This document shows, piece by piece, positions 3,847 to 44,633 of a stretch of 64,000 nucleotides of DNA. A program made the translations under genes and the position numbers. Within the stretch, counting starts at the first letter, position 1. Each line of letters opens with the position of its first letter. The notes beneath the pieces are model-generated. The model did not search any database. It saw only the letters and a program-made list of their open reading frames with translations, and had not been told where the DNA came from. Origin of the DNA: an uncultured virus (IMG/VR IMGVR_UViG_3300033463_000092) (lineage: Duplodnaviria > Heunggongvirae > Uroviricota > Caudoviricetes); IMG/VR virus record IMGVR_UViG_3300033463_000092; one strand, 5' to 3'.

Positions 3847-3930
3847 AAAAAAAGAAGCCTCCTGAGGAGAGACTTCCAAAGGAGGATAGAAATATCTGTC
3901 AGGCCAACCACTGCCCTATCAGGAGGCTTC
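3847..3930 (-). ncRNA. 3'-UTR structured RNA motif, copy A (anti-leader loop, anti-SD loop, terminator-like closing stem)
   Basis: GAAGCCTCCTGA/TCAGGAGGCTTC stem plus U7 encloses TAGG-GCAGTGGTTGG-CCTG and a hairpin with loop TCCTCCTT. Confidence 0.65.
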
Positions 3931-3940
3931 TAACACTCTT

Positions 3941-5074
3941 TTACAGAGTACCAGCCGCCTGACTCATTCCACCAATGAACTTCTTAGCGGCTGCCGCATA
4001 GTTCCTATTGGTCATGATGAGCTTCATGGCTTCCATGGGTTTGATCTTCTTATTGCCGAGCATCGCCGCACGGATCATCATGGCACCGAAGTCATTCGGC
4101 ATCTTATCGAGGACCTTGTAGAATCCGTTGACCCTCTTTTCGGTGTCCTTCTCATCGGCACCATTCCACAGATGATAGATCACGGCGGAGGCCACAGCGT
4201 ACCGACGATCGGCCTTGTCCGGGAGCTCAAACTCAGCCTTGTCGTTGGTCATGACTTCCAGGATGGAGTCAAATTCGGAACTCATCTTGAAGAATTCCAT
4301 GAACTCAAGTCCGACACCATTGCCAATCAGACCGTAGACCACCTTCCGAAGAAGGTCGGAATTTCCGTTGAACATATGAATAACATTGCTCACCCGTTCC
4401 CAGGACCGAGGACTCGGCCAACCCTGCTCAAGGTTCTGACCTTCCATCTTAAAGAGAAGATTCGGACGGTAGTTGATGAATCCGATGACCGCGGGGTTGA
4501 TATCATTCATCACAGCCCACTTGACCCAGTCTTCGGAATTGGCTTCCATCTCAAAGTGGACAAACCGGTTAGCCAAGGCGGAACTCATCGTCTTCACCAC
4601 GGCACGGTCACAGGTCCTGTTTCCCGCTGCGACGATCAACCAACCATTCGGGAGCTTGTAATTGGAGTTGGGAATCCGACGGTCCAGGACCACGGAATAA
4701 GCAGCCACCTGACAATCGGAAGGTGCCGAGGTAATCTCGTCAAGAAGAATGATCCCCTTGGACTTCATATCGCGAGGCCAAAAACTCGGAACATTCCACT
4801 CGGTCATCCCTTCACGGACCGAAGGCAGACCAGCAAAGTCCACTCGTTCCATCTGAGCCAAACGAACATCGATGAATCCGATGCCAAGATTCTGAGCCAC
4901 AGTACGGACGATGGTGGACTTACCAACCCCAGGCGCTCCACGAAGCATGATAGCGGGAAGAGAACCGGCCATCTCAGGATTGCCGATCAAGGTTTCCGCG
5001 GAGGTCTTGATGATGTTGTAAGCTTCATCACTGGAGACCAGGTTGTGCATGTCAATGGTGATTCCGTTCGTCAT
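3941..5074 (-). CDS. MoxR-like AAA+ ATPase
   Basis: Walker A GAPGVGKS, Walker B ILLDE, IVAAGN, ALANRF, PSPRSW. Confidence 0.9.
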   Translation of the reverse strand: MTNGITIDMHNLVSSDEAYNIIKTSAETLIGNPEMAGSLPAIMLRGAPGVGKSTIVRTVAQNLGIGFIDVRLAQMERVDFAGLPSVREGMTEWNVPSFWPRDMKSKGIILLDEITSAPSDCQVAAYSVVLDRRIPNSNYKLPNGWLIVAAGNRTCDRAVVKTMSSALANRFVHFEMEANSEDWVKWAVMNDINPAVIGFINYRPNLLFKMEGQNLEQGWPSPRSWERVSNVIHMFNGNSDLLRKVVYGLIGNGVGLEFMEFFKMSSEFDSILEVMTNDKAEFELPDKADRRYAVASAVIYHLWNGADEKDTEKRVNGFYKVLDKMPNDFGAMMIRAAMLGNKKIKPMEAMKLIMTNRNYAAAAKKFIGGMSQAAGTL

Positions 5075-5156
5075 TTTTTCTTCTCCTTATTTATTGGTGG
5101 TTGTTCGATATTAAAATATAACAGTGGAATTCAAAAAGTAAACCGTTTTCACACTC

Positions 5157-5516
5157 TTAATTGGAATAATTCTTAAGGTAGTAGTCAAATTTCTCTTTCT
5201 CTTCGGCATCTTTGATCAGATTGACGGTATTCTCAAGGTTTTCTTCCAGATGATTCTTAAGATCGGTGATCGCCTTCGTGAAAGCTTCCCTCATGGTTCC
5301 GAAAAGTTCATCTTCAGGGTAGATTCCACCAGCTTCAGAACAATACTTGATCCCATCTTTATCAAAGGTGATAGATTCAATCATGATTTCTCGGATCCCA
5401 GAGTAAATGCTGTCAAACAGCTCCTCATCTCTATAATCAGCTTCATCAAGTTCAGCTCTGTCGCGAATGACGAATGCAGTGTTTCCGACATTGAATTTGG
5501 TATTGAGTGATGCCAT
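5157..5516 (-). CDS. Hypothetical protein (TKFNxG N-terminus; paralog of 25441..25809)
   Basis: Own promoter and SD. Confidence 0.75.
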   Translation of the reverse strand: MASLNTKFNVGNTAFVIRDRAELDEADYRDEELFDSIYSGIREIMIESITFDKDGIKYCSEAGGIYPEDELFGTMREAFTKAITDLKNHLEENLENTVNLIKDAEEKEKFDYYLKNYSN

Positions 5517-5597
5517 TTTGTTTTCTCCTTTGTTCTTGTTTTTATTTGTGGCATATATTAAAATATAACATTTGACTTGGAAAAGTAAACAAGCTTC

Positions 5598-5936
5598 TCA
5601 GTTCCAATAAAGTCTGAGAGCTTTGATAAGTCTATTGTAAGATTCTTCAGTAAGGTAAATCAAAGTGGTGAATCCATTGATTCCACGGCCTTCAAGACGG
5701 TTGAGGAAGCAGCGAGAAGTCTTCACAACGTCTACCACCTCACTGGAATATTCACTTCTCATGATTTTGACTTCTTCAAGTTCATCAATTTGAATAAAGG
5801 CATCCAATCTGATAAAAGTGCGGATAGTTCTGGCATTCTGTTCAAGGATTCCACTTTTTCCGCCGGTGGCGAGCTCAGCTCTGTTGGACATATGATAGGT
5901 GGAATAAATGTCGACGTCAATAAAATTTTCATTCAT
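5598..5936 (-). CDS. Hypothetical protein
   Basis: AAGGA SD before MNENF; start revised from the ORF track. Confidence 0.7.
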   Translation of the reverse strand: MNENFIDVDIYSTYHMSNRAELATGGKSGILEQNARTIRTFIRLDAFIQIDELEEVKIMRSEYSSEVVDVVKTSRCFLNRLEGRGINGFTTLIYLTEESYNRLIKALRLYWN

Positions 5937-5979
5937 TTCTTGCTTTTCCTTTTTGTTGATTGATATTGAATTGTGAATC

Positions 5980-6435
5980 TTAATACCAAAAATCATCCGT
6001 ATCACAAAAACGTTCAGGATCTTCATAATCCATGAAACAACTCAGACTAAGCATTGTTCCTTTATGCTGATTGGAATCAGGCTTCAGAACACCCCAACAT
6101 CCGTATTTAGCATCCTCTCTGAAGACGTACACATAGGAATATCCCAATTCCTTGAGTTCATCAAAGGTCAAATTGTCCAGACCTTTCTGCCTCCAATTAT
6201 AATGTTCGGTATTGTAAAGATCTTCTCCAAGAGTCCTTACAGCCTTTCCGTAAGCCAACTTTTTGACATCCTCAGCATCCTGCCAATACCTTTCAAGAAG
6301 CCAACCAGCACCGAACCCATATGGACGATTTAGCTGGTAAGGATGAACAAGTTCAATATATCCGTCACTACAGATTTCAGTACCAGTGAAAGTTCCATCT
6401 TCGTTTTTGTAAAACACAGCAGCATGAGTAGACAT
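5980..6435 (-). CDS. Hypothetical protein (MSTxA...SDGY family)
   Basis: GAAAGGA SD; paralog of 3429..3773. Confidence 0.75.
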   Translation of the reverse strand: MSTHAAVFYKNEDGTFTGTEICSDGYIELVHPYQLNRPYGFGAGWLLERYWQDAEDVKKLAYGKAVRTLGEDLYNTEHYNWRQKGLDNLTFDELKELGYSYVYVFREDAKYGCWGVLKPDSNQHKGTMLSLSCFMDYEDPERFCDTDDFWY

Positions 6436-6457
6436 AATTTATATCCTTTCTTTTTGT

Positions 6458-6841
6458 TCAGTTAGTAAATCCAAATTTCAATTCAGGAAACTTCACCATG
6501 AGACACTCAATGATCTTTTCCTTCATGGTGATCTCATCATCGTAATTTCCCGCGAAGCAAAGGCTATTGTTATCGGAATAATTGATCGAGATCGGGGAAT
6601 CTTTGTCGAATTCAGAATGGAACATTTCCATCGCCTGCTCCATAGCATTTTTGCTGCCGTTCGGACCTTTATACCAAGATCCTCCTTCCGCATGGCAGTG
6701 CCAAAGATCGGAAGGCTTCCACTTCAGATAGATCCTCGGATGATAGCGACAATCCATATCGGTCGCCAAAGCAACCATAATCATGCATTCGGTAGTCTGA
6801 AAGAACTTCTTGTCGCAAAGCCAAACTTTATTCTTCGCCAT
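6458..6841 (-). CDS. Hypothetical protein
   Basis: Own promoter; leader nearly identical to that of the AAA ATPase. Confidence 0.75.
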   Translation of the reverse strand: MAKNKVWLCDKKFFQTTECMIMVALATDMDCRYHPRIYLKWKPSDLWHCHAEGGSWYKGPNGSKNAMEQAMEMFHSEFDKDSPISINYSDNNSLCFAGNYDDEITMKEKIIECLMVKFPELKFGFTN

Positions 6842-7164
6842 TTTTCTTCTCCTTATTTATTGGTGGTTGTTCGATATTATAATATAACTGTTGAATTCAA
6901 AAAGTAAACCTTAACAGGAAACATTTTCATCAAAATATTCAAGTGCTTCGATTTCATTCTTTGCTGGTATTTCTTCCCAATATCCATTCTTAGAGCGCCT
7001 TACAAAGTAAATGCCATCCTCAGATATACCAAGAGATCTACCAAGAAGATCGGTGATCAAAATTTCAATTTCCATTTTCAAACCTCCTTTTCATCTATTG
7101 TCAATATTAAAATATAACATTTGACTTTAAAAAGTAAACACTTTTTGAAAATAAAATCTTTGAT

Positions 7165-7269
7165 CACTATGAACACTTTTCCCCGCCCCCATGGGACAGA
7201 CAGGAAAATGAAATCTCTCCTTTTCTCTGGTTGATATTAAAATATAACAGTGGAATTCAAAAAGTAAAC
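7165..7269 (-). repeat. Promoter-driven hairpin/G-tract element, copy 1
   Basis: CACTATGAACACTTTTCCCCGCCCC..TGGGACAGACAG...CTGGTTGATATT plus promoter; six copies in the window. Confidence 0.9.
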
Positions 7270-7286
7270 CGCATCATCACTCTTAA

Positions 7287-7985
7287 TCAAAGTTTTCTTT
7301 GGCTTTGATCAAACCTTTTTGAAAATTCAATAGAATTATCAGCAGGATATTGATCACCGTCTTTTGCATATTTGGACATATCTTCAATTTCAAACTTTGC
7401 AATTTCTTCTTCAGCTTTATCGAGCATTTTGATCATAACACGATCGGAAATCCCAATTTTGATTTTTTTGATAAAGGCGCATTTTACAGCTCCAGAAGTT
7501 GCAGTCAAAATTTCATAGCTTTCAGGAATTTCAACCCCATAATCATTGACCTTCTGATAATTTTTAGTCATTTCCATTCTGTACGAAACATTCGTTGGGC
7601 CAGGATGATATAATACATCAATCCTCAAAGAAGAGTTTGCATCTGTTCCATTGTGACGGAAAACTTCAGTAATACAAATGGATTTATAACATTCAGCAAA
7701 ATGATCTTTCCAAAGAAGAATTGGATCACGGAAAGAATAAGGATTGACAAATGTGCCAAGGTAAGCAGTAGACACAAATTCAGATTTGCTAAAAGAAATT
7801 TTGCCATGAGACCCATTTCGAAAAACACGATATCCACGTTTGAACAACTCATCGGTTATTCTTTTCACTTGTTCGGCAATTTCAGGAGTGGACCAAGAAG
7901 ATTTAATGATGTTTCCATTAGAATAACGAGGTGCATCAATTTCGGTGAATTCATCTTGAAACATTTTGTCAATACGGGTATTCAT
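7287..7985 (-). CDS. Hypothetical protein flanked by ~99-bp direct repeats
   Basis: GAAAGGA SD before MNTRID; own promoter. Confidence 0.75.
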   Translation of the reverse strand: MNTRIDKMFQDEFTEIDAPRYSNGNIIKSSWSTPEIAEQVKRITDELFKRGYRVFRNGSHGKISFSKSEFVSTAYLGTFVNPYSFRDPILLWKDHFAECYKSICITEVFRHNGTDANSSLRIDVLYHPGPTNVSYRMEMTKNYQKVNDYGVEIPESYEILTATSGAVKCAFIKKIKIGISDRVMIKMLDKAEEEIAKFEIEDMSKYAKDGDQYPADNSIEFSKRFDQSQRKL

Positions 7986-8068
7986 AAGTTTCCTTTCTTT
8001 TATTTTGTTATTAAAATATAACATTTGATTTTAAAAAGTAAACACTTTTTGAAAGGAAAATCTTTGAT

Positions 8069-8166
8069 CACTATGAACACTTTTCCCCGCCCCTTTGGGA
8101 CAGACAGCGATTAAATAAATCGTCTGGTTGATATTAAATTATAACATCTCAATTCAAAAAGTAAAC
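8069..8166 (-). repeat. Promoter-driven hairpin/G-tract element, copy 2
   Basis: Same core as 7165..7269. Confidence 0.9.
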
Positions 8167-8216
8167 GGAAAAAAGAAAAAAAAAATGGAGTCTAAAAAAC
8201 TCCATGATCATTAAAA

Positions 8217-8307
8217 TGGCGGAGGCAACTGGATTCGAACCAGTGGGCAGCTTTCGCCACCGGATGTTTTCGAGACATCTGCCTTAAACCAACTCAGCCA
8301 TGCCTCC
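8217..8307 (-). tRNA. tRNA-Ser(CGA)
   Basis: Cloverleaf; GATGT-CT CGA AA-ACATC, long variable arm, encoded CCA. Confidence 0.95.
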
Positions 8308-8347
8308 GTTTATTTTTAATATAACATCATTTATTTATTCGTAAACT

Positions 8348-8998: not shown

Positions 8999-9062
8999 TT
9001 TAATCTCCTTTATTTTTAAGGTTATTAAAATATAACTTTTTTGAAATAAAAGTAAACTGATA

Positions 9063-9505
9063 AAAAAGAAAGGGTGTTTTAATACCCATCATTTACTCTA
9101 CACCCAATTTCAATGACTTTGCCATGTTTAATTAAATTGTAAAAGAAAAAACATAAAAACTTCTTTAACAATAAGATTTTGGAATGACCTTTATACCATT
9201 TTATAAAATGGAGGTAAAATCTCATTACCTAACGTCTTGATTCAAATTTATGTATTCGGATCAACCGTTTAACCCGTCCAAGGAATGACCTTGAATATTA
9301 AATCTCTAAATTTTAATCCGCCACCAATTCCCTCCAAAAGGTTGCTCGCCAGAATTACCCTCAGCATTGCAAATCAAAGAAATGAATCAAAATACCATTT
9401 AACAAACCAAACCACTGAAAGAAAGGAAAACAATGATTGTTTGCAATCTGCAATCCCTCAACTCTGAGATTAAAAATTATATGATTTTCAAATCATCTTG
9501 TAATC
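9063..9505 (-). ncRNA. Putative late non-coding RNA carrying an antisense copy of the early leader-SD-AUG
   Basis: TATAAATA at 9508..9515, boxA-like 9485..9497, no credible ORF, ends in GGGT...ACCC hairpin plus U tract. Confidence 0.45.
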
Positions 9506-10430: not shown

Positions 10431-11657
10431 TTACATTTTAGAAATATAAGATTCCCAAAGTTTGTCAAATACATTCACAGACTTTCCAATCTGATATTCT
10501 ATCAACTGATCAAAAGTTTTGATGAAAGATTTCAACATGAAGAAAAACAGGTTCTTATACTTTGAATCTTTAATCTTCATAGCAAAATCTTTTTTCAATT
10601 CAGGATGATCAATGAACTTCTGAGGATCATTTAATTCATCAGAGATTAGCTTCAAATCAGTATTGAATTCTTCTAGAAATTTATTATACTTTTCTTTGAC
10701 TTCATCAAAGTAAGGCTTCATATGAGGAAGGCTTGAAAGAACTTCAGCATCTTCTTTATTGTAAATCAAAGTAAGAATTCTTTCATATTGAGGAGTTCCA
10801 TTTTCCAATGAACCTCTCAAATGATGCAAAGCAACATAAGCAGAATTTTTTACTTTAACTCTAGGGAATGAATTAGTTACTTTATCATAAGAACTAAAGT
10901 CTACAACAACAAAACCTTCATCTTGAGAATTTCCAGTTTCTGCAAGCATTTTCATTTTTTCAAACCCAACAAAATCGTCAGATTCTTTATCATACAATGA
11001 AATCACTTTAGGAATTCGGATGATATTTCTCATTGCAGAATCCATAGAATCATAAAGATCAGTATATTTCAGTTCTTCATAATCTTTATTTCTTCCACCG
11101 ATCAAATAAAGATGAGCAGCATCCCACTGAGTGACAATTTGATTGAATGGACTAACAATTTCAAAAATGTAAGTAATGTCAGAAGAAAGTCTTTCAAAGA
11201 ATTCTTCGCGAGTCATTGGATAGATTGCCATATCAAAAATATTGTTAACAGTAGTACCCAAAGCATTAATAGCATTGTCTCCGCCGATCATCGAACGAGT
11301 AGACAAAAGCCATTCTCCTTTGTAATTGAAAACTTCAAGAAGTGAGCCATCAATCTTTTCGGTTGCCATTGAGTTTTTCCAATTGAATTTCAGACGTTCT
11401 TCAGGCACTTCTTCAAAATTGTAGAAACGATAAAAAGGAAATGAAACTATTTCCCAAGTATTCATTTCAAGAACCAATCCTCTACACATTCTAACAATAG
11501 GATTGATTTTAGGAGAATCAATCTGAGAATATGAAAGAATAACAAGATCACCATTCTTTGTATTGAAAATACGATAAGAAATACCAAGTTCCTCTTTCAA
11601 AGTATCAAGTGACTTGTCTGCTTTATTCAGATATTCTTTGACAAAATTCTTAAACAT
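10431..11657 (-). CDS. RNA ligase, T4 Rnl1 family
   Basis: CRGLV, FYRFYN, motif I EKIDGS, FEIVSP, EGFVV, RVKVK. Confidence 0.9.
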   Translation of the reverse strand: MFKNFVKEYLNKADKSLDTLKEELGISYRIFNTKNGDLVILSYSQIDSPKINPIVRMCRGLVLEMNTWEIVSFPFYRFYNFEEVPEERLKFNWKNSMATEKIDGSLLEVFNYKGEWLLSTRSMIGGDNAINALGTTVNNIFDMAIYPMTREEFFERLSSDITYIFEIVSPFNQIVTQWDAAHLYLIGGRNKDYEELKYTDLYDSMDSAMRNIIRIPKVISLYDKESDDFVGFEKMKMLAETGNSQDEGFVVVDFSSYDKVTNSFPRVKVKNSAYVALHHLRGSLENGTPQYERILTLIYNKEDAEVLSSLPHMKPYFDEVKEKYNKFLEEFNTDLKLISDELNDPQKFIDHPELKKDFAMKIKDSKYKNLFFFMLKSFIKTFDQLIEYQIGKSVNVFDKLWESYISKM

Positions 11658-12440: not shown

Positions 12441-12983
12441 TTACTTCATCACAAACGTAAAGAAGGAATTATTGATAAATTTTGTCTGTTCAACAGTAAA
12501 TCCATTGAAATTTTCAAGAATCTTCTGCCAAACCTCTTCTGCAAAATCTTTCATTCCAACTTCTCTACCACGAAGTTCAAGTACAATCTTTACTTTACAA
12601 TTATCCGCAATAAACTTCTTTACATGTTCAACTTTTGTATTAAGGTCATTGTCTGCAATATTTACATGAAATTTGATTTCTTTCATTTTCTGCTGAAATG
12701 CTTTTTGTCTCTTTTCTTGATCCTTTTTAGCTTTCTTTTGTTCATACAGAAATTTTTGCATATCAACAAGCTTGACGATTTCGAGATTTTCAGAAGGCCT
12801 TGCATTGACAACAAGAATGTCTTTTTCATAATTATCAGCAAGATCATTCATTGCACTGTACGAATGTCTTACATCACCCGAATTCTGAAAGTCTCCAACA
12901 ATTTGAAACTTTTCATTTCCAAATTCTTTGAAAGTAAAATCTTTTTCAATGTAACCATTTCCAGACTTGAAGAAAATCTTCAT
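12441..12983 (-). CDS. infC: Translation initiation factor IF-3
   Basis: KEIKFHVNIADNDLNTKVEHVKKFI...KVKIVLELRGRE matches the IF3 C-domain; basic linker present. Confidence 0.9.
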   Translation of the reverse strand: MKIFFKSGNGYIEKDFTFKEFGNEKFQIVGDFQNSGDVRHSYSAMNDLADNYEKDILVVNARPSENLEIVKLVDMQKFLYEQKKAKKDQEKRQKAFQQKMKEIKFHVNIADNDLNTKVEHVKKFIADNCKVKIVLELRGREVGMKDFAEEVWQKILENFNGFTVEQTKFINNSFFTFVMK

Positions 12984-13412: not shown

Positions 13413-13426
13413 TATATTTATAATAA

Positions 13427-18514: not shown

Positions 18515-19054
18515 TCAATTTTTTCTTAAAAATTTTAAAATGTTATTTGAAATTTTTTCAGTCAAACCAAACTCCATTGATGTTTTAAAAAACTTTAGTT
18601 TAATATCTAAGTATTCTTTCATCATTGGATCTGCATCTTTATCATCATCAATAATTATGGCTTTACTTATACTATATAAATTGTTATGATCATCTAACCA
18701 ATTTAAAATTTCATTGTATCTTAATCCATTACTTAATGTTGGTGTATATCCTAAAAAACTTTCTTTAGGTAAACCAACATTATAAAATAAAGCTTCAATG
18801 AATGGTTTTGAGTTTCTACCTGCAGTATGCCTCCATGAAGAGGACCAAACAATTTTACATTCTTCAATTTTATTGATCTGTTCAAAAAGATTATGAAATC
18901 TTTCCATAAGTTCTGGAACTATGAAATACATATTTTGAATACAATACTTCTTTCTGAATTCATTTACTGAATTAGATCCATGTTCTTCTTTCCATTTCTT
19001 AACAAATGAAGAACAATTTAAAACTCCATCCATGTCTAAAAATATAATGAACAT
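18515..19054 (-). CDS. HAD-family phosphatase (RNA-repair-associated HAD type)
   Basis: FLDMDGVLN, IVWSSSWR, IIIDDD. Confidence 0.85.
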   Translation of the reverse strand: MFIIFLDMDGVLNCSSFVKKWKEEHGSNSVNEFRKKYCIQNMYFIVPELMERFHNLFEQINKIEECKIVWSSSWRHTAGRNSKPFIEALFYNVGLPKESFLGYTPTLSNGLRYNEILNWLDDHNNLYSISKAIIIDDDKDADPMMKEYLDIKLKFFKTSMEFGLTEKISNNILKFLRKN

Positions 19055-24492: not shown

Positions 24493-24625
24493 TTTTTCTC
24501 CTTATAATTTATGGTTGGTTGTTATTATAATATAACGGCGGAATTCAAAAAGTAAACTTAAATTTAGAAAAACTCCTTTTCTCTGGTTGATATTGAAATA
24601 TAACATCTTAACTTAAAAAGTAAAC

Positions 24626-24722
24626 AAAAAAAGCCTCCTGACTCTATGAAAGAACTAATTCCACAAGGAGGAAATGGAATTATGGAAGAAGGGCCAACCA
24701 ACAACCCCGAGTCAGGAGACTT
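24626..24722 (-). ncRNA. 3'-UTR structured RNA motif, copy B
   Basis: GTCTCCTGACTC/GAGTCAGGAGGC stem plus U7 encloses GGG-GTTGTTGGTTGG-CCC and a hairpin with loop TTCCTCCTT. Confidence 0.65.
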
Positions 24723-24729
24723 TGAATTT

Positions 24730-25065
24730 TTATTCCACGAAAGTTACACCAATAATATCAATACTCTTGAAATAATTATCAGGAACAATCATAACGGAAT
24801 CAGTTTCTGCATTGAAAAGAGTCTGAGCTCCAATACGATACTGCTTAGTGCCGGAAGGGGTCTTCCATCCATTAATTTTTCCAATTAGATTACCTTCAGA
24901 ACCATCCTGAGTTAGAACAACATGATTATCAGATACTCGCTTGATGTATACCGTATTATCAGTATTGAACTTGGCTTCTCTGATAGCATCAGCGGGAATG
25001 TTTAGAGTCTTTGTAAAAGATCTATAATCTTCGTTGAAAAACCTGTGAAATGCATCTTTCTTCAT
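24730..25065 (-). CDS. Hypothetical protein
   Basis: AGGAG SD. Confidence 0.75.
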   Translation of the reverse strand: MKKDAFHRFFNEDYRSFTKTLNIPADAIREAKFNTDNTVYIKRVSDNHVVLTQDGSEGNLIGKINGWKTPSGTKQYRIGAQTLFNAETDSVMIVPDNYFKSIDIIGVTFVE

Positions 25066-25089
25066 TGTTTTGTTCTCCTATTTTAATTT

Positions 25090-25380
25090 TTAATCAACAA
25101 CTTCTTCAAAATCTTCACCAATCTTCACACTCAGAATGTTCTCAAGTTTTGCAGATCTGTATGCTTCAGATTTAATATCATAATACTGAAATACATTCTT
25201 TTCTTTCATCTTAGTTTCCCGATTCATTCCAGTTCCTTTGACTCCAAGATCTGCTACAGCGTCATGGAGTTTGCACTTTGCTTTTCGAATTTCACCGTTC
25301 TTTTTCTTATAAATCATTTCAAATGGTTTTTCACCTTTACAAGATTCAGTGATAATCCGATAAAAATCCTGTCGCTTCAT
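25090..25380 (-). CDS. Small SH3/WYL-like beta-barrel protein
   Basis: YKKKNGEIR...YYDIKSEAYRS pattern. Confidence 0.65.
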   Translation of the reverse strand: MKRQDFYRIITESCKGEKPFEMIYKKKNGEIRKAKCKLHDAVADLGVKGTGMNRETKMKEKNVFQYYDIKSEAYRSAKLENILSVKIGEDFEEVVD

Positions 25381-28855: not shown

Positions 28856-29683
28856 TTATCTGTAAAATTGCAGATCATTGATATTCAGATCTTGATCAAC
28901 ATTAAAGATCATTCCATCAATTTTTCCAGTTTTGAAATAATAATCATTACCAAGATTCAGACAAGGAATGTCATAGATGTACTTATGAACGAACCTATGA
29001 GTATGTCCACAGAATACAAATTTGAAATTCTTATCTTTTAACTGCACAAGGAAATCTTCACAACCAGAATATGCATTATAAGGTGAAAGAGGATCTTCAA
29101 CACTAAACAAATTCAATTCCTCATGGGGAACTGTGTGAGTAAGTAGAATATGATTTTTATTTTTGTCAATTGAATTGAGAATGTTGTTTTTGCAAACTTC
29201 ATGTTCCTTCATAGGATCAAAATCTTCAATGCTTACATCAAGCCACCCATTAATGATTTCACCTTTCATTAGAAGTCTGCTGTGATTCAAAGACCAATCA
29301 TACCAAAAAGCATTCCCAACAATTCTGGTATTATCCACATCAAAATAATGATCAATGTCTAAACATGAAACATTTGATCCAGCAAATTCCTTCTTCATCT
29401 TTTGATATTCTTGAAGAACTTTAGGATAACTTTGGTAAGCGAACTCATGATTCCCAAGACAGAAAACAACAGTCTTTCCATCAAAAAGATAATCAAGTGC
29501 ATCAAACACATTAATGAAAGCAGGAGCAGTACTTTCAAAAACATCCCCTGAAATAAGAACTAAATCATAATTAGCAGGAATGTTGTTCTTCAGAATTCTT
29601 TTGTATTTATCAAGATAGAATCTTGACGAATAGTAATTTTTGTTGATATGCAAATCAGAAAGTACGAGGATCTTCATAATCAA
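28856..29683 (-). CDS. Calcineurin-like metallophosphoesterase
   Basis: SDLH, GD, GNHE, LTH, GHTH motifs. Confidence 0.9.
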   Translation of the reverse strand: MIMKILVLSDLHINKNYYSSRFYLDKYKRILKNNIPANYDLVLISGDVFESTAPAFINVFDALDYLFDGKTVVFCLGNHEFAYQSYPKVLQEYQKMKKEFAGSNVSCLDIDHYFDVDNTRIVGNAFWYDWSLNHSRLLMKGEIINGWLDVSIEDFDPMKEHEVCKNNILNSIDKNKNHILLTHTVPHEELNLFSVEDPLSPYNAYSGCEDFLVQLKDKNFKFVFCGHTHRFVHKYIYDIPCLNLGNDYYFKTGKIDGMIFNVDQDLNINDLQFYR

Positions 29684-32412: not shown

Positions 32413-33480
32413 TTAACCTTGTAAAATTTTCAGGAAGTAGGGCTGAATAAATTTGGAAACATATTTAGAAGCTTCTTTGCGAACTCTATCAAAATTGAAT
32501 TCCATATTTTCAGAAGCTTCTTTATATACTTCTTCTTCATATTCTTTATTGAAATCATTCCACATATCTTTGAGGTAAGAACCAAGAATCATACCGAACA
32601 TTCTATCATTGAGTTTCGTGGTATCAATTTTGCTCAGAACACTCATAAGTCTGGATTCTGTAACGAATTCAATAATGATGTTGAACCATTTCATTTCCAC
32701 TTCATTCATTGGAAGAACTTCTTTAGGCTCTTTGTTTTTGGAAATACGTTCTTTGAACTTAGTGCCTTTCTTTTTAAGGATAACCCTTTGACCATTGGGT
32801 TTGAAAAGTGCTCTATTAGGTTTGATAACAATACCTTCAGCAATGTTTCCCTCGATAATCGGAAGTCCCCAAAGAATATTGCCAGCTCTATCAACAAAAT
32901 CAATTGGATAATCCATGCATTCCTCTGCAGTTCCTCTTCCAAGAATAATAGGATAAGGAAGATTTACGGCTTTACAATATTTCACCACATCATCTTGAGT
33001 AAGAATTGCATGAGTTTTTCCATCAGGAAGCCTAATGACAATATCGAAAGGAACCCATTTGTTATCAGGATGATAATCCACTCTTCCCTGGATTTTGATA
33101 GCGCCTTTTACTTTTTCCACATCAGGGTGACGATACATACCGCCACAGAGTTCTCCATAGACGGTAAGGACAAATGGAAAGGTCAATTCAGGAAAATCTT
33201 TCTGAATAAGCTCTTTCATCTTGATGAGTTTCTCTTTTGCTCTTTCTTTCATGAAACAAGCAGTAGAACCTTGAAAGTCAGAACCAGGAGCATATACTTG
33301 AGTTCTGGAACCAACAATGAAGTTTCCATTTTCATCAATAGAGCATTGGCAATTACTTCCATCAATTTTCAATTCAATGACATATTCAATGGAAGGATCA
33401 AAGAATCCCTGCTCTTTTAATTCATTGATGAATTTATTGTTATACGTATTTTCAATTTCAGAGTATTTTTTGAAAATCAT
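32413..33480 (-). CDS. RNA ligase, Rnl2 family
   Basis: FKKYSEIEN, LKIDGSN, YGELCG, PFDI, EGIVIKP, ILKKK, RLMSVLSKI. Confidence 0.9.
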   Translation of the reverse strand: MIFKKYSEIENTYNNKFINELKEQGFFDPSIEYVIELKIDGSNCQCSIDENGNFIVGSRTQVYAPGSDFQGSTACFMKERAKEKLIKMKELIQKDFPELTFPFVLTVYGELCGGMYRHPDVEKVKGAIKIQGRVDYHPDNKWVPFDIVIRLPDGKTHAILTQDDVVKYCKAVNLPYPIILGRGTAEECMDYPIDFVDRAGNILWGLPIIEGNIAEGIVIKPNRALFKPNGQRVILKKKGTKFKERISKNKEPKEVLPMNEVEMKWFNIIIEFVTESRLMSVLSKIDTTKLNDRMFGMILGSYLKDMWNDFNKEYEEEVYKEASENMEFNFDRVRKEASKYVSKFIQPYFLKILQG

Positions 33481-35110: not shown

Positions 35111-35649
35111 TTCTAAATCCTTCCTTTCTTTTTATATTATAACATTTTGAAATGAATAATAAACTAAAAAGCATTCAGAGCCAGATTCAATTCAAAGGAG
35201 AGAAAAATCAAATCCAGGTTTAGGTTAACCAGACCATTATCTGAATGCGTATATTTTTATTTTAATCATTTTTAAGAATAATTAAAAATTTGTAAAATTA
35301 CTGAATGTTCCATATTTAATAAACTTTACAATATCTAAAAAATTTTGATATTTATCAATAAGTTCTTTATCACTGTTTGCTTTTGCTGTTGCTAATTTTT
35401 TTGCAAAGTATTCTTCTAGTTCATTAAGTCTTTTTAGTTGTTCATCTGTCATTTTTATCTTAGTGCTTTCCTATTTTGACTTTGAATTTTCAACTTCAAC
35501 TTTGAATTTTCAACTTTAAATTTGTATAGACTATTTCAACTTAAAGTTTGAAACTTCAACTTCAATTTGAATAAGTTAAAGTAATTTTCTATTCTGATTG
35601 TTATTTATAACTTCTAAATAACAAATAAACAATTCAAAAATAAAATTGA

Positions 35650-36163: not shown

Positions 36164-36508
36164 ATATTATATAATAAGGTAACAGTAGAAAATTTGAATT
36201 GAATTACTTCTTTATTTAATGTGTTTTAATTAATGAAGTTACACCAAGTATTGATGGAATTTTATTTTGAATTATTTTGAATTCAATTCAAAATTTGATT
36301 TGTAGCAATGAGAAAGTGATTTTGGAAATGATCAATGGTATTCTTTGATACCATGTTTTCATTTGAAAAATAAAGGATGCTGATATTAAAAATATAACAT
36401 GCAAAGTGAAAAAGTAAACTGAAAATCAAAGAAAAATCAAAAATAAATGCAAAATAAAAATCAGGATCAAGTTTACTTTTCCATTGTATATGTTAAAGAA
36501 ACTTTGTA

Positions 36509-36613
36509 CACTATGAACACTTTTCCCCGCCCCTTTGGGACAGACAGGAAAATGAACTCTCTCCTTTTCTCTGGTTGATATTAAAATATAACACGATCGA
36601 TGTGATAGTAAAC
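36509..36613 (-). repeat. Promoter-driven hairpin/G-tract element, copy 3 (at the transcription divergence point)
   Basis: Same core as copy 1. Confidence 0.9.
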
Positions 36614-37929: not shown

Positions 37930-38000
37930 TTGGTTTACTTTTTGAATTCCGGTGTTATATTTTAATATTGAACAACCACCAAAAAGAAAGGAAACACGTC

Positions 38001-39554: not shown

Positions 39555-39624
39555 TACGGTTTACCTTTTTCCTCAAAATGTTATAATATAACAACCATTA
39601 AACTTCAACCAAAAAGGAAAGAAA

Positions 39625-39990: not shown

Positions 39991-40044
39991 AGTTTACTTT
40001 TTTAAAACTGATGTTATATTTTAATATCAATCAAATGAAGGAGA

Positions 40045-40446
40045 ATGAAAATGAATTTTGAAATCGGAGATGTCGTTAAAACTAAAGGTGGGAATCTCGG
40101 AATTTTTGCGGGCTTGAATGCAAAAGGGGATGCAATGATTAAGATTGCATATGTCCGTCCTGGCGAGGGCCTTAGATTCATTCACAATAAGGGGAAGGTT
40201 GAAAACCTCACATTGATGGAAAATCCTTCCTGTGTAGGATGTGTCTATAATCGTTATATTAGCTATTATGAGGCTTCCTATGGGAAATATCAGCCGATCA
40301 CTGATTACAGCAACATTGATATGTCAAAGCTTGGTCAAGGATGTCCGAAGGTTGCGAATGAATTCAGAAAAAGGTATGCAAAGTTTTTTACAGCTGATGG
40401 ACATTTTGATGAAAAACTTGTTCAGTGTCCAGAAAAGAAAGATTAA
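40045..40446 (+). CDS. Hypothetical protein
   Basis: Promoter and SD. Confidence 0.75.
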   Translation: MKMNFEIGDVVKTKGGNLGIFAGLNAKGDAMIKIAYVRPGEGLRFIHNKGKVENLTLMENPSCVGCVYNRYISYYEASYGKYQPITDYSNIDMSKLGQGCPKVANEFRKRYAKFFTADGHFDEKLVQCPEKKD

Positions 40447-40510
40447 CGGTTTACTTTTTCAGTCAGCCTGTTATATTTCAATATCACCACCAAACAAAAG
40501 GAGAATAAAA

Positions 40511-40795
40511 ATGAGTCAGTATACCCGTCTTGCTTCCAATGATGAACAGGAAAAAGTGATTGCCACCATCGAACGTTGGGCAAAGAAGATCGGAAAGCCG
40601 ATCTGCGGAGCGGATCTCATCGGTAAGTATCATGATTGTGTGATTCTTGATCTCACCTATCAGGGCTGTGAAATTTACGTTCATGCCAATGGGTGGGAAG
40701 ATACCGAACATGGATATCCCGGTGTTACCTGCAAGAATGTCCATATCCAGGGTCCTGATTGTTTCGAAACATTCAAGACTGCCGCCTTGAGTTAA
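40511..40795 (+). CDS. Hypothetical protein
   Basis: Promoter and AAGGAG SD; start revised. Confidence 0.75.
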   Translation: MSQYTRLASNDEQEKVIATIERWAKKIGKPICGADLIGKYHDCVILDLTYQGCEIYVHANGWEDTEHGYPGVTCKNVHIQGPDCFETFKTAALS

Positions 40796-40832
40796 TCGGT
40801 TTACTTTTAAAGAAAGGGTGTTATATTAAAAT

Positions 40833-41178
40833 ATAAACGAAAGGAACCAACCACTGATCAAAAGGTCTGCAGTTCGGTAAGGAAGACGTATTGAAGGTGG
40901 TGGTGTTTCCTGGAGTTAGAAACAAGTCTCGTTGAACCTTCAGAGTAGTACGTCCGCGGCGTCGGTAAGGTTCATGGAGCCAGGGATCATTATCGGAAGT
41001 AATGTGTTCTGGTATGCCAAATGTGGTAGAGCAGCCGAGTTTAAACTCGTTCGAGTTCGGTGCGTTGGAGGTTCGACTCCTCCTCAGAACATGGAAGTCT
41101 TCGGCCAAAGCTCCTTCCCTTCTGTGATATGGCCCTGAAATGGAAGTTCCGGTATTGGCCTATCGGAACTTCTTTTTT
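40833..41178 (+). ncRNA. Structured RNA containing a degenerate tRNA-like domain (41006..41091)
   Basis: Own promoter and terminator (41143..41178); GTTCTGG/TCAGAAC acceptor and GGAGG-TTCGACT-CCTCC T arm; non-canonical anticodon loop. Confidence 0.55.
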
Positions 41179-41221
41179 TGTTTATTTTCTCAAGAAAGAT
41201 GTTATATTATAAATAGAAGAT

Positions 41222-41293
41222 GGTTTGTTAGTTCATCGGCTAGAACAGCTGGTTGTCGCCCAGCAAAGAGGAGTTCGATTCTCCTACAGACCG
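41222..41293 (+). tRNA. tRNA-Asp(GTC), CCA not encoded
   Basis: GCTGG-TT GTC GC-CCAGC cloverleaf. Confidence 0.9.
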
Positions 41294-41301
41294 AATTTTA
41301 T

Positions 41302-41376
41302 CGCGGGATAGAGCAGCGGTAGCTCGGCATGCTCATAACTTGCAGGTCGGTGGTTCGACTCCACCTCCCGCTACCA
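41302..41376 (+). tRNA. tRNA-Met(CAT), initiator-like
   Basis: C1.U72 mismatch, GAGC/GCTC D stem, GCATG-CT CAT AA-CTTGC, CCA. Confidence 0.9.
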
Positions 41377-41382
41377 TTTTAT

Positions 41383-41457
41383 GCGGGTGTAGCATAGTGG
41401 CTCATGTCCTGGCCCTCCAAGCCAGTTACGCCGGTTCGATTCCGGTCACCCGCTCCA
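41383..41457 (+). tRNA. tRNA-Gly(TCC) with C33
   Basis: CTGGC-CC TCC AA-GCCAG; U73 and CCA. Confidence 0.9.
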
Positions 41458-41671
41458 TTTTTTGAATTGAGTGAAGCATATCAAATAAATAATTCTAGAA
41501 AAGAATTTTCAATTTTTATGCTATACACCAAGAAGCTCCGTCTTTACCAATTTTACCTTTGTGTGATCATGGCAATTCTAACAATCTTGACCATGATCAC
41601 TATTGCTTCATGCATTTAATTTCAATCATTTTTTATTATATTTTGAATAACTAATTGAAAGGCAAAACAAA

Positions 41672-41896
41672 ATGGATCCTGTTTCAGATTTAGCTATTAG
41701 TTTGTCATGTGAAGTGGAAAAGCTAAAAAGTATGTTAGAAAGAGAACGAAAGTTTGTAAGAAATTATTCTTTCTTTGTTGTCATTTTTTTAATTGTTCTA
41801 TGCTTTACTATAGGATTTCGTTATGGAACTAGATACGGGTACAATAAAGCCATCAATGATTATTCTCAGGGAATATTGAAGATAGATCAAAAATAA
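41672..41896 (+). CDS. Small membrane protein (similar to 37298..37483)
   Basis: One TM segment followed by GYxxAxxDxxxGxLK. Confidence 0.65.
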   Translation: MDPVSDLAISLSCEVEKLKSMLERERKFVRNYSFFVVIFLIVLCFTIGFRYGTRYGYNKAINDYSQGILKIDQK

Positions 41897-42297
41897 TTCT
41901 GTTTACTTTTTGAATTCCATTGTTATATTATAAAAAGGAGGATTAGAACATGATTTACCAATTTCCTAATGGAGATGTTTATCGAATCAGAAAATCCATT
42001 TCATCTCCTGGAGCAGTTCTTGAAAAAATTGATTCTATAGGTGGATATCCTGAATGGGTTATAGAATGTGAAAGCTATAAAGATGCAAAAATCATGTTGT
42101 GTGACCTTCTTGGTTATTCCACTTTTGCTTTATGGAAGTTGGAACAGTTTCAAAAGAGATGAAGTTAACTTCAAGTCTACAACTTCGACTTCACTTCAGC
42201 TAAAACAGAGTTGACTACTTAGTAGACTAAAGTGAAGATCGGTTTACTTTTTCAGTCAGTCTGTTATATTTTAATATACAAAAAACAACAAGAAAGG

Positions 42298-42711
42298 ATG
42301 AAACTTATGATTTCCCCGAACTTCAACATTCGCCCTGTCAAAGACGTGTTCAAGGAAGTTCTTCCGAAATGCTATGATATGCTCAGCATTGACTATGATG
42401 ATCAGATCATCGAAAGGAATGCCGAAAATCTTTGGTCCGAATATGGCAATGACATCATGGAATGGATGGAAGGTTTCTTCGGCATTTTTTATTGGGATGA
42501 GGAATACAGTGTGGCAATGACTGTCATGGAAAATTACATTGCCATGTTGGAATCTCAGAATAAGAGGGGAAATCACATTGAGATCAGTGTGGAAGATTGG
42601 TGGGCTGAACTGATTCAGGAAGCCATGATGGCCAATGCTGAAAACCTCTTTGATGCCGAAGGACCGTTGAACTTCTACGGTGAACCTCTTTTTGATAAGG
42701 AGGAAAACTGA
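42298..42711 (+). CDS. Acidic hypothetical protein
   Basis: Promoter; TGATG coupling to the next gene; exact start uncertain. Confidence 0.7.
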   Translation: MKLMISPNFNIRPVKDVFKEVLPKCYDMLSIDYDDQIIERNAENLWSEYGNDIMEWMEGFFGIFYWDEEYSVAMTVMENYIAMLESQNKRGNHIEISVEDWWAELIQEAMMANAENLFDAEGPLNFYGEPLFDKEEN

Positions 42712-43016
42712 TGAAAGATCTGCTTTGCAAATTCAAAGGCTACGAGGTAGAAGGAATTGCTTGGATCCTTTGTTGGGGAGGTCAGGAAGGCCATATCCGC
42801 ATGGATAAGAGATTCATTGAGTCTGAAAAAGATATCAATAAGGCGATCAATGATGCCGGTTTTGGCTGCCAACGAATCATGTATGCATGGGTCCATGTTT
42901 ATGCAATCTTCGATCATGAAGCTCGTCTGTTTCTCTACGATAAGTATGTCAATCTTTTGAATCCTGATGAAGAAGTTCCAGCCGAATGCAAAGAAAATAT
43001 GGAACGCTTTTATTGA
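42711..43016 (+). CDS. Hypothetical protein
   Basis: AAGGAGG SD. Confidence 0.75.
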   Translation: MKDLLCKFKGYEVEGIAWILCWGGQEGHIRMDKRFIESEKDINKAINDAGFGCQRIMYAWVHVYAIFDHEARLFLYDKYVNLLNPDEEVPAECKENMERFY

Positions 43017-43083
43017 GGTTTACTTTTTCAGTCAGCCTGTTATATTTTAATATACAACAACCACCAACGAAAGGAACTCCACA

Positions 43084-43383
43084 ATGAAGAAAGAATACAC
43101 CAACCCTCTGTTTCAGAACTGCAAAATTTCTCAGATCTACGTCGGCAAGGATCATTATTGCCGCTGTGGCTGCGGCGGGGAGTATTATGGTTTCAATCCC
43201 AACTCTCCGTTCATCCGTAGGACTCTCACTCGTGCGTACAACACTTACAAGAAGGATCCCTCCAGCTGTGAGATCTTCAACGGCGACGGAACTCAGGAGA
43301 GTTGGATCAACATTCCCACCTCCCTCATCGGTCCCGGTCGTTGCATCTGCGTTTATTTCAAAGGCGAACTGATGACCAAGTAA
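43084..43383 (+). CDS. Hypothetical protein with CRCGC motif
   Basis: Promoter and SD. Confidence 0.75.
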   Translation: MKKEYTNPLFQNCKISQIYVGKDHYCRCGCGGEYYGFNPNSPFIRRTLTRAYNTYKKDPSSCEIFNGDGTQESWINIPTSLIGPGRCICVYFKGELMTK

Positions 43384-43680
43384 AGAAAGGGGAAGTTCAA
43401 ATGGAAAAAAGAGATTTCATTTATAAGTATCTGTCTTGGGTCGATGATCCTTCCATTCTTTTGATTACAAGTGCAATATTCTTTATTCTTTTTTTCGGGG
43501 GTATATCCATTCTTCCTAATAAGGATAAAATCAATATGAATAAAGAAAAAAGTTATATGAATGTCAAAGGGAATTTGATCGTAAATATTGAAAAGAAATG
43601 ACCAAGTAATTCAGTTTACTTTTTCAGTCAGTCTGTTATATTTCAATATACAACAACTCCAAAAGAAAAGGAATTCTCAA

Positions 43681-44016
43681 ATGGAAAAAGCTCGCGAAAA
43701 AACCAACGAATCTGTCAGGGAAGCCGTCAAGGTTGTTCTCTTTGTGGTCACCAATGTGGACATCGGACAGAACTCGGACTTCGCTCCCCACTGTCTCGGA
43801 ATCTTCCCCACTTACGAAGCTGCCAAGACCTTCGTCAAGGAGGATATCTTTGATTTCAAGGATGATCTCTACAACAACTTCGGAGAAGAGCCGGATACGG
43901 ATTACGAAAAATTTGTCTGTCAGACGGTCGATGGTATGTACGGCTCTCAGTGGTCCATCGATGAGGTCGAAATGGACCCCATCATTCCCGGTCGCGGATA
44001 TCCCAAGGAATTCTAA
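43681..44016 (+). CDS. Hypothetical protein
   Basis: Promoter and SD; start revised. Confidence 0.75.
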   Translation: MEKAREKTNESVREAVKVVLFVVTNVDIGQNSDFAPHCLGIFPTYEAAKTFVKEDIFDFKDDLYNNFGEEPDTDYEKFVCQTVDGMYGSQWSIDEVEMDPIIPGRGYPKEF

Positions 44017-44095
44017 TTCTTGGTTTACTTTTCAGAAGATTAAGTTATAATTTAATAACCCCACAAACAAAAAACAAAAACAAGGAGAAAAAACA

Positions 44096-44476
44096 ATGAA
44101 GACTCTCACCATCAACTTCGAAAACGTCGCTCGTGAAACCCTCACCGTCAAGTCCGAATGTGCTATGTGGAATGCTCTGCGGAAGGTCCGCGATGAGCTG
44201 ACCGATGCCGATCTTGAGGCTAAGGCTCGTGTCCTGGTCACCGATGCCGACGGCAATCTGTTCAAGGACATCACCTTCAAGCGGAATGCCAAGGGCAAGA
44301 TCGAGATGCCCAATGCCGTGAAGGAGACCAACCGGGTCCGCACCAAGAAGACCGCTCTCGCTGCGGAGGCTGCTGAGGAAGCCGTTGCTCCCAGTGGTGC
44401 CACCGAGGCTGAAATGTCCAATGTCCTCGCGGATGCTCAGAATCTCGCTGAGGTGAGTGAAGCCGCCGGCGAGTAA
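44096..44476 (+). CDS. Hypothetical protein (KSExAMWN...FxxNxKGKIE family)
   Basis: Paralogs at 47248, 48284, 60769 and 62926. Confidence 0.8.
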   Translation: MKTLTINFENVARETLTVKSECAMWNALRKVRDELTDADLEAKARVLVTDADGNLFKDITFKRNAKGKIEMPNAVKETNRVRTKKTALAAEAAEEAVAPSGATEAEMSNVLADAQNLAEVSEAAGE

Positions 44477-44521
44477 GCCAAATAAAGGATGGAGATGGAA
44501 CCTCCATCCTCTTCCTAAGAT

Positions 44522-44633
44522 TGGCTTCGGCCTTCAGATGGTTGAATAGGGATTGTTGTTGGCCTGAATGATTTAAGATCCGTTACCTCCTTTCAATCTT
44601 AGATCAGCTTCAACCATCTGAAGGCCGAAGCCA
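44522..44633 (+). ncRNA. 3'-UTR structured RNA motif, copy C, closed by a perfect 25-bp inverted repeat
   Basis: 44522..44546 and 44609..44633 are exact reverse complements; they enclose TAGG-GATTGTTGTTGG-CCTG and a hairpin with loop containing CCTCCTTTC. Confidence 0.65.

Follow-up and report, generated by a model that had tools for sequence, protein, structure and literature searches.

The 64,000-nucleotide stretch of DNA analyzed here (the window), IMG/VR record IMGVR_UViG_3300033463_000092 from an uncultured virus of the Caudoviricetes, carries a structured RNA element in three copies (A, B and C), along with one further copy (D) that is decayed. Folding and covariation support a real structured RNA family in which the loops are conserved over varying stems. 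The explanation that we favor, with confidence a little short of even, is that the copies are branched 3'-end terminator structures that would pair in antisense with translation-initiation regions, in the first place with the leader of their own mRNA. Termination, the RNA–RNA pairing and its effect are all things that we infer. The element is probably best filed as a new RNA motif that combines a terminator/promoter cassette with anti-Shine-Dalgarno (anti-SD) regulation from an mRNA's 3' untranslated region (3'UTR). The copies and their parts are as follows.

3847..3930 (-): copy A; closing helix P1 pairs 3930-3919 with 3865-3854; U-run at 3853-3847
3918-3900 (-): copy A, hairpin 1; loop 3914-3904, GCAGUGGUUGG
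3897-3868 (-): copy A, hairpin 2; loop 3886-3879, UCCUCCUU
24626..24723 (-): copy B; P1 pairs 24722-24709 with 24644-24631; 11-nt junction, then U-run to 24626
24705-24694 (-): copy B, loop of hairpin 1 (stem GGG/CCC)
24673-24665 (-): copy B, loop of hairpin 2, UUCCUCCUU
44522..44633 (+): copy C; P1 is a perfect 25-bp helix, 44522-44546 with 44609-44633; no U-run
44551-44562 (+): copy C, loop of hairpin 1
44580-44595 (+): copy C, loop of hairpin 2, with CCUCCUU at 44586-44592
35168..35251 (-): copy D, decayed; three-way architecture as in A-C, plus a U-run; the loop of hairpin 1 reads ..UGGUUAACC.. and the loop of hairpin 2 is UUCUCUCCUUU
~44488-44511: small separate hairpin between a 126-aa open reading frame (ORF) and copy C

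Copies A, B and C each lie 3' of a TAA stop codon on the coding strand (3941-3943, 24730-24732 and 44474-44476, respectively) and share one fold, a three-way junction in which the long closing helix P1 encloses hairpins 1 and 2. The original prediction had named these three stretches, their position after stop codons and their common fold, and all of this is borne out by sequence and folding. The minimum free energies are -34.5, -38.9 and -58.0 kcal/mol for A, B and C, with z values of -2.8, -6.0 and -8.6 relative to dinucleotide-shuffled sequences. In three of three copies, folding favors the transcribed strand over its complement (-33.6/-32.4 for A, -37.5/-26.1 for B and -57.3/-53.8 for C) because of G·U pairs, as had also been predicted. 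The 25-bp P1 of copy C could be a substrate for RNase III. The pattern GTTGGCC-N5-35-CCTCCTT occurs three times in the window, where 0.01 occurrences are expected, and none of 100 shuffles contains it three times or more.

The CCUCCU loop of hairpin 2 is open in the predicted ensemble, with probabilities of being unpaired of 0.85–0.99. The GUUGG segment of hairpin 1 is only partly open (0.5–0.8), because G·U pairs can extend this hairpin. The two loops might instead pair with one another (GG..GG with CC.CC) and lock a compact, nuclease-resistant fold, since GGUUGG and CCUCC could make two G–C dinucleotide contacts. We consider this very improbable: at most two contiguous pairs can form, copy C has a single GG, and the linear anti-leader forms of the relatives described below cannot fold in this manner. 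The idea is judged weak.

A covariance-model search, which the original prediction had proposed, recovered the known copies and added three more. Model R1, for which copy A was the only source, finds C again (30.1 bits, E 4e-5), as well as B (18.8 bits, E 0.026); beyond A–C nothing in the window exceeds 14 bits except the palindromic reverse match of A itself. Model R2 was built from A, C and the two copies of a relative, L118; it lifts B to E 0.003 and brings up copy D (16.4 bits, E 0.05). Alignments of the copies made with MAFFT were not structurally coherent and were dropped in favor of model-fitted ones. The resulting alignment A9 contains the six true copies and three reverse-strand rows that touch P1 only. 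Standard pairs occupy 95.7% of its cells, and both sides have changed in 19 of 26 pairs, a result that none of 500 shuffles equals. When the partners are slid by 1–3 columns, pairing falls to 33–53%. A9 is fitted to the structure and hence leans towards the model; the margin is nonetheless large. CCUCCU occupies the apical loop of hairpin 2 in five of the six copies (D has CUCUCCU), and GUUGG is likewise kept in five of six, on the 3' side of the loop of hairpin 1. The claim that stems vary under conserved loops therefore stands, with one amendment: the hairpin-2 stems, which had been called unrelated, are diverged homologues.

The Rfam scan of the whole window returned 11 tRNA matches and no family for the element. 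When the scan was relaxed for the regions of A and C, the best non-tRNA scores were 27.8 bits against a gathering threshold of 80 and 30.2 bits against 79, for snoRNA and miRNA models. A literature search on anti-Shine-Dalgarno loops in phage terminators or untranslated regions gave no such element among the matches listed. The earlier statement that no family of this kind has been described is consistent with Rfam, where none matches.

The context of the copies points to transcription termination. A U-run follows directly 3' of P1 in A (P1 of 12–13 bp, then U7), B (14–15 bp, U7) and D (9 bp, U5), and the first of the two copies in L118 (L118a) has a U6 tail. A G+C-rich helix with a U-run is thus found in A, B and D among the four window copies, and not in C; P1 and the U-run in A, B and D therefore have the anatomy of an intrinsic terminator. 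The usual short hairpin loop is replaced by 53–70 nt enclosed by P1 as two hairpins. An early-type promoter, GTTTAC-N14-TGTTATA, starts at most 4 nt after A, B and D, and the stretch from the stop codon to the element contains no promoter motif in copies A–C.

3817..3843 (-): promoter after copy A, GTTTAC-N14-TGTTATA
24599-24625: equivalent promoter after copy B
35138-35164: equivalent promoter after copy D
1947-1973 (-): further example of the promoter
5117-5143 (-): further example of the promoter
37933-37959 (+): further example of the promoter
62857-62883 (+): further example of the promoter

The motif reads as a -35 box GTTTAC, a 17-bp spacer and a -10 box TATAtt. It occurs 103 times in the window with up to two mismatches, against 1.3 expected, and precedes almost every small ORF on the strand of that ORF, so that the early region has an extreme one-promoter-per-gene arrangement. 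Most genes of the window lack a terminator altogether. Where simple ones are present, those listed have ordinary loops without CUCC, and none of the 26 terminator-like hairpins called in the window scan has an anti-SD-like loop. To judge from these sequence features, the elements are the stem-loop half of terminator/promoter cassettes resembling the PeSLs of T4-type phages, a context that the original prediction had missed.

A second kind of repeated sequence was also observed. Partly palindromic repeated words of the type TTCAACTTTAAGTTGAA are located at 44690-44740 (+) and 35480-35640 (-), and also just 3' of the ATPase stop codon in two relatives of the phage, L127 and L129. Ahead of the gene that follows copy C, and upstream of the small gene that precedes copy D, words of this type take the place of the standard promoter; they may constitute a second class of regulatory site.

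The genes whose mRNAs end at or near the copies are the following.

3941..5074 (-): MoxR-like AAA+ ATPase gene; its mRNA ends in copy A
~5075-5116 (-): leader of the ATPase gene, containing CAACCAC and AAGGAG
24730..25380 (-): two-gene unit ending in copy B, with a 96-aa WYL_2 protein (25090-25380) and a 111-aa ORF (24730-25065)
44096..44476 (+): 126-aa ORF ending 5' of copy C

The ATPase has hundreds of metagenomic relatives, and relatives are plentiful in rumen and gut metagenomes. Eighty ATPase loci (numbered with the prefix L) were taken from metagenome contigs for comparison. L117 is the same phage. L118, with an ATPase 87% identical, carries two near-identical copies of the element. One is located 3' of the ATPase gene; the other (L118b) lies 2 kb beyond it, directly 3' of a VWA gene, between the stop codon and the promoter. 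The end of the VWA gene in the window consists of the stop codon, 3 nt and the promoter, with no element, and the element is therefore an optional cassette of ~95 nt. A 95%-identical contig (from run X9) keeps the gene upstream of copy B, and its homology ends at 24713, within the first bases of B. The three-way element behaves as an indel between relatives. DNA contigs of four sequencing runs were compared over the B region and mostly cover the repeated promoters only; B is unchanged in two runs, a short contig (from run X6) has a similar, gapped hairpin-1 region, and no new copies for covariation were obtained.

No further three-way copies were found in the 80 loci (460 kb, default filters) or in 22 of the closest loci (94 kb, filters off). 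A GTTGGCC..CCTCC match 3' of the ATPase gene in L130 was dropped, as it folds differently and has a z of -1.7. A search of IMG/VR with the ATPase gave no relative. A loose loop pattern matched at least 115 loci there, 100 of which were searched with R1 with no convincing match (best 13.1 bits, E 0.34); of the strict loop patterns, one gave a single chance match in a GC-rich coding start and another gave nothing. The promoter pattern has no match in the collections viral_contigs or genome_contigs. The ATPase relatives in genome_contigs (L197–L241; 44–61% identity) come mostly from rumen and gut metagenome-assembled genomes of Lentisphaerae, Victivallales and Kiritimatiellae, and have neither the promoter motif nor the element. 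The binning of these genomes is a hint, not evidence, as to the hosts of the wider phage group.

Gain and loss of the cassette also bears on a deflationary account, in which the copies would be mobile PeSL-like modules built from inverted leader fragments, with no function beyond termination and recombination; the anti-leader look of the loops would be due to this origin alone. We regard it as decidedly doubtful. The presence or absence of the element at orthologous sites agrees with it, and PeSLs are known to shuffle, according to PMC2839356. The ATPase leader, read as its reverse complement, is collinear with the 5' half of copy A (CUCCU, 9 nt, GUGGUUG), the 3' arm of P1 in copy C is leader-like, and in L132 the 3'UTR bears a further resemblance, to the antisense of part of a -10 box, a sequence that would not be transcribed in a leader. 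Unselected loops should, however, decay faster than stems, yet the loop cores are kept while 19 of 26 stem pairs have changed, and loop conservation over diverged stems therefore argues against a relic. Anti-leader sequence moreover recurs at the ATPase gene, in different shapes, across relatives with 47–100% ATPase identity.

The proposed targets are the leaders of the early genes. A leader that consists of a CA-rich stretch (for example CAACAACCACCAAC), then AAGGAG or GAAAGGA as the Shine-Dalgarno sequence (SD), and then the start codon is found within 75 nt 3' of 81 of 98 promoters (at most one mismatch), in agreement with the prediction of stereotyped leaders with two conserved parts. The CCUCCU loop of hairpin 2 is the complement of the SD; the hairpin-2 loops of A, B and C have complements of at least 6 nt in 38–91% of the 81 leaders. 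Exact complements to the hairpin-1 loops were counted in the same leaders and compared, on the 6-nt measure, with 200 shuffled loops.

Hairpin-1 loop of copy A: at least 6 nt in 38% of leaders and at least 7 nt in 23%; shuffle mean 6%; 3 of 200 shuffles as good
Hairpin-1 loop of copy B: at least 6 nt in 54% and at least 7 nt in 26%; shuffle mean 26%; 0 of 200 shuffles as good
Hairpin-1 loop of copy C: at least 6 nt in 35% and at least 7 nt in 16%; shuffle mean 21%; 31 of 200 shuffles as good
Hairpin-1 loop of copy D: at least 6 nt in 11% and at least 7 nt in 5%; shuffle mean 6%; 31 of 200 shuffles as good

The claim that the loops are complementary to the leaders thus holds in part: it stands for CCUCCU and for the hairpin-1 loops of A and B, whereas much of the hairpin-1 match reflects composition and loop C does no better than its shuffles. 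The match that had been reported between copy A and the leader of its own ATPase gene is reproduced. CAACCAC is complementary to GUGGUUG and AAGGAG to CUCCUU, and the predicted duplex has an energy of -19.5 kcal/mol; the leader of the gene downstream of copy A gives -13.2 kcal/mol only. The VWA gene that is ended by L118b has a leader with a 10-nt exact complement to the hairpin-1 loop of L118, UUGUGGUUGG, a match that is suggestive only, given its composition.

A repeated promoter-proximal unit of ~85–100 nt without an ORF was also observed. It is located, always on the (-) strand, at the following positions.

7140-7242 (-): repeated unit
8044-8139 (-): repeated unit
36498-36586 (-): repeated unit
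45582-45718 (-): repeated unit
46246-46349 (-): repeated unit
59665-59767 (-): repeated unit
24558-24598 (-): truncated start of the unit

The unit consists, in order, of AUCAACCAG, a variable hairpin that often contains AAGGAGG, a conserved hairpin CUGUCCC-NNN-GGGGCGG, and AAAAGUGUUCAUAG. The 59.7 kb copy has compensatory changes, no Rfam family matches the unit, and it is a candidate for a new small RNA or a leader decoy. The units with AAGGAGG are the strongest predicted partners of the anti-leader loops in the window; pairing with them is not claimed, as the 9–10 nt matches are within chance for 28 comparisons. A further intergenic tract at 9380-9440 (-), which reads CCUUUCUUUCAGUGGUUUGGUUUGUU on the sense strand, is the antisense of a leader-like sequence (SD and ATG on the other strand) and would be a further anti-leader or else a small gene on the plus strand that lacks a standard promoter.

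Near-uniform leaders, of which one pair of loops could reach many, are also what the original prediction relied upon. In the global form of that account, the processed or terminated element would be a free antisense RNA family that forms kissing contacts in trans with the CA-rich box and the SD in many early leaders and shuts off early translation as a whole; it could be likened to an RNA counterpart of T4 RegA. Both loops are exposed, the terminator helix would protect a 3' fragment, and an IF3 homologue shows that the phage invests in translation control in other ways too. We nevertheless find a global switch of this sort quite unlikely. Four copies would have to serve ~100 leaders, and these copies are themselves the ends of early mRNAs, for which no separate promoter was seen. 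Once composition is allowed for, specificity is weak. Of 22 related ATPase loci, 20 lack the three-way form, and it is likewise missing from the 94 kb searched unfiltered.

The ATPase 3'UTR was inspected at 22 of the loci. Anti-leader sequence of some form is present there at 13 of these 22 loci, in several shapes.

L117, L118, L137, L138, L140, L141 and L145 (7 loci): anti-SD-like motif in a hairpin loop
L144 (1 locus): UUCUCC in a terminator loop, after GUGGUUGGUU
L122, L132 and L134 (3 loci): unpaired collinear antisense of the leader (anti-SD, then a GU tract of 12–21 nt) just 5' of a simple terminator
L133 (1 locus): weaker form of the unpaired collinear antisense before a terminator
L136 (1 locus): GU tract within a terminator loop
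L120, L123, L125–L130 and L142 (9 loci): ordinary terminator with no anti-leader sequence

The leaders of L137–L141 read GUACCAAAC...AGGAGAAA, and their 3'UTRs have a small hairpin with the loop UUGGUAC followed by a terminator with the loop UUUCUCCU, in the same order as hairpins 1 and 2; the stem of the UUGGUAC hairpin differs between L138 and L140. More distant loci have yet other leaders, and their 3'UTRs begin with exact complements to the ATPase's own ribosome-binding region, in L156 (9 nt), L157 (9 nt), L158 (10 nt) and L160 (11 nt); exact complements of 9–11 nt are also present in L146/147 and L140. The pair L146/147 has neither an SD nor CUCC, and its 3'UTR complements the 5' end of its own leader and the start-codon region. 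The leader word concerned is unique within the 4–9 kb locus in four of five cases (L156, L157, L158, L160 and L146/147) and occurs three times in L156.

GU tracts of at least 8 nt are found in 11 of the 22 ATPase 3'UTRs, against 12 of 98 promoter-upstream regions of the window, where the 12 include A and B as well as three leaders of divergent promoters in antisense orientation. Tracts of at least 12 nt occur in 5 of 19 non-redundant relatives; the window control has three only, one in copy B and two at opposite-facing promoters (60195 and 60230). Complements of at least 9 nt between the 3'UTR and its own initiation region are present in 12 of 45 loci (two of them low-complexity or promoter artefacts), compared with 120 of 1980 cross pairs. 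Against dinucleotide-shuffled leaders, p<0.05 is reached in 9 of 45 loci (2.25 expected) and p<0.01 in 2 (0.45 expected). Among 109 terminator-like hairpins of the window and the 80 loci, seven have anti-SD-like loops, compared with 1.2 in shuffles, and none of 500 shuffles reaches seven; no hairpin among the 109 has the complementary AGGAG loop. The anti-leader signal across relatives is real but moderate. At the level of sequence, complementarity to leaders can be seen to track leader type, and the relatives favor pairing with the element's own 5' leader at least as much as a global switch.

The same comparison bears on the possibility that the element is a terminator and mRNA-stabilizing structure whose loops bind a protein or the ribosome and not leaders. 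Candidate partners are the IF3 homologue, S1, a Sm-like/WYL protein or a factor that recognizes the 3' end of 16S rRNA. The relevant genes in the window are the IF3 homologue and, in first position of the two-gene unit that copy B ends, the gene for the 96-aa WYL_2 protein (Sm-like SH3 beta-barrel), a possible RNA-binding partner.

12441..12983 (-): IF3 homologue (Pfam IF3_C, E 1.7e-17; IF3_N, E 3e-5; phrog_9787)

CCUCCUU is the anti-SD of 16S rRNA, the CCUCCU loop mimics the 16S 3' end, and the loops are conserved and single-stranded, that of hairpin 1 in part. This account nonetheless appears unlikely to us. The element changes with leader type, down to the 3'UTR of L146/147, which complements its own leader without SD or CUCC, and this behavior fits RNA–RNA pairing better than a fixed protein site.

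Antisense pairing from the mRNA 3' end, the explanation favored here, would proceed as follows. P1 and the U-run (A, B, D and L118a) would act as an intrinsic terminator directly 5' of the next sigma-70/T4-early-like promoter, in a cassette that is gained and lost between relatives. The terminator loop is expanded into two hairpins, and selection would have kept their apical loops, one G/U-rich and ending in GUUGG and the other carrying the anti-SD CCUCCU. The two loops would pair with the two parts of a leader, the CA-rich stretch and AAGGAG/GAAAGGA. Foremost among the candidate targets is the element-bearing mRNA's own leader, in the manner of icaR; a second possibility is that the element, as a 3' fragment protected by its terminator, reaches other leaders. 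Pairing would either lower translation or produce a duplex marked for RNase III.

Several results weigh against this explanation. Copy C has no U-run and no standard promoter nearby. The complementarity of the hairpin-1 loops is largely compositional, GU-rich against CA-rich, and loops C and D are not above their own shuffles (31 of 200 each, as tabulated). In B, C and D the leader of the own unit is matched in little beyond the SD. The three-way form has a narrow range, being seen in the window phage and a single close relative only, and 9 of 22 relatives end the ATPase gene with an ordinary terminator that lacks anti-leader sequence. The mean length of the longest exact complement is 7.3 nt when a 3'UTR is compared with its own initiation region and 6.2 nt for cross pairs, a modest difference; some loci in the shuffled-leader test are related (L140/141, L146/147 and L158/160) and are not independent. 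The matrix of duplex energies between 3'UTRs and leaders across loci is noisy and not diagonal, and four of the seven anti-SD terminator loops come from the near-identical loci L148–151. Among the sequencing runs that matched in a search for the phage there is no RNA run, which counts equally against a global trans switch.

A wider version of antisense pairing may also be entertained, although we think it improbable as a whole. A large clade of uncultured rumen phages would run an RNA-based translation circuit with one short CA-rich and SD leader on nearly all early genes, its own IF3, and terminator-embedded anti-leader modules at the ends of selected mRNAs, above all that of the MoxR-type ATPase. 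The module would co-evolve with the leader even into SD-less lineages, and in the present phage it would have become a multi-copy three-way RNA able to act as a trans feedback brake on early translation.

The window is part of a large uncultured rumen phage with a GC content of 38% and 11 tRNA genes. Its protein-coding genes include those for two RNA ligases (types Rnl1 and Rnl2), an NAD-dependent DNA ligase and a Pol X-like enzyme, besides the MoxR-like ATPase with a VWA/DUF2201 partner. A set of RNA-repair genes was noted among the tRNA genes, one of which may itself be unusual.

10431-11657 (-): Rnl1-like ligase
32413-33480 (-): Rnl2-like ligase
18515-19054 (-): HAD_SAK_2 protein
28856-29683 (-): metallophosphoesterase
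41005-41092 (+): tRNA called by ARAGORN with a four-base anticodon (aaac) and no amino acid assigned; 30.4 bits in Rfam against 29; may be odd or degenerate

A phage collection gave no nucleotide match for the ATPase region or copy C, and the best protein match of the ATPase there is to Bacillus phage G (35% identity). An affiliation with T4-type phages is hinted at by Rnl1, Rnl2, the tRNAs and the form of the promoter only.

The element is a motif absent from Rfam that covaries, lies within predicted terminators, and exposes two loops, one anti-SD and the other a second anti-leader. Should the pairing prove real, phages can time or limit early translation through contacts between the 5' and 3' UTRs or through 3'UTR-derived antisense, terminator loops can carry regulatory information, and mobile terminator/promoter cassettes can spread such regulators. 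To our knowledge, regulation from the 3'UTR in bacteria is limited to a handful of cases, and phage examples are rare.

Parts of the proposed mechanism have counterparts elsewhere. RsaE/RoxS and other C-rich-loop small RNAs of Firmicutes target G-rich SD sequences with C-rich apical loops, and in the pairs RNAIII–rot and OxyS–fhlA two hairpin loops contact two target sites. These are independent small-RNA genes with their own promoters, whereas the phage elements are mRNA 3' ends. In phage T4 the RegA protein is a repressor that shuts off many early messages post-transcriptionally, and hairpins sequester the ribosome-binding site of e, soc, 49 and I-TevI in long transcripts. Post-transcriptional gating of many early messages and dense early promoters would be common to T4 and the window phage. 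The T4 hairpins act on the gene immediately downstream, however, and copy A matches the downstream leader poorly.

The closest parallel for the pairing is icaR mRNA of Staphylococcus aureus, in which, according to PMC3868564, a pyrimidine-rich anti-SD in the 3'UTR pairs with the SD region of the same mRNA, blocks initiation and makes a substrate for RNase III. An anti-SD in the 3'UTR that complements the SD region of the same mRNA is likewise found in copy A; B, C and D match the SD part only. The phage element differs from icaR in its additional anti-CA loop, its display on a three-way junction within a terminator and its several paralogous copies, and its pairing is predicted. For the cassette the parallel is the PeSL of T4-type phages, described in PMC2839356 and PMC4122927 as a stem-loop beside a strong early sigma-70-like promoter that is repeated among small genes and tied to indels between close relatives. 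The promoter of the window, GTTTAC-N17-TATATT, fits the T4/PST form TTTACW-N17-TAYWAT (PMC4122927). Copies A, B and D adjoin a repeated early promoter, and indels between relatives are seen at the L118b site and at the X9 break at 24713. The stem-loops of PeSLs are simple hairpins, as described in those two papers, whereas the terminator loop of the window element holds two hairpins with conserved loops.

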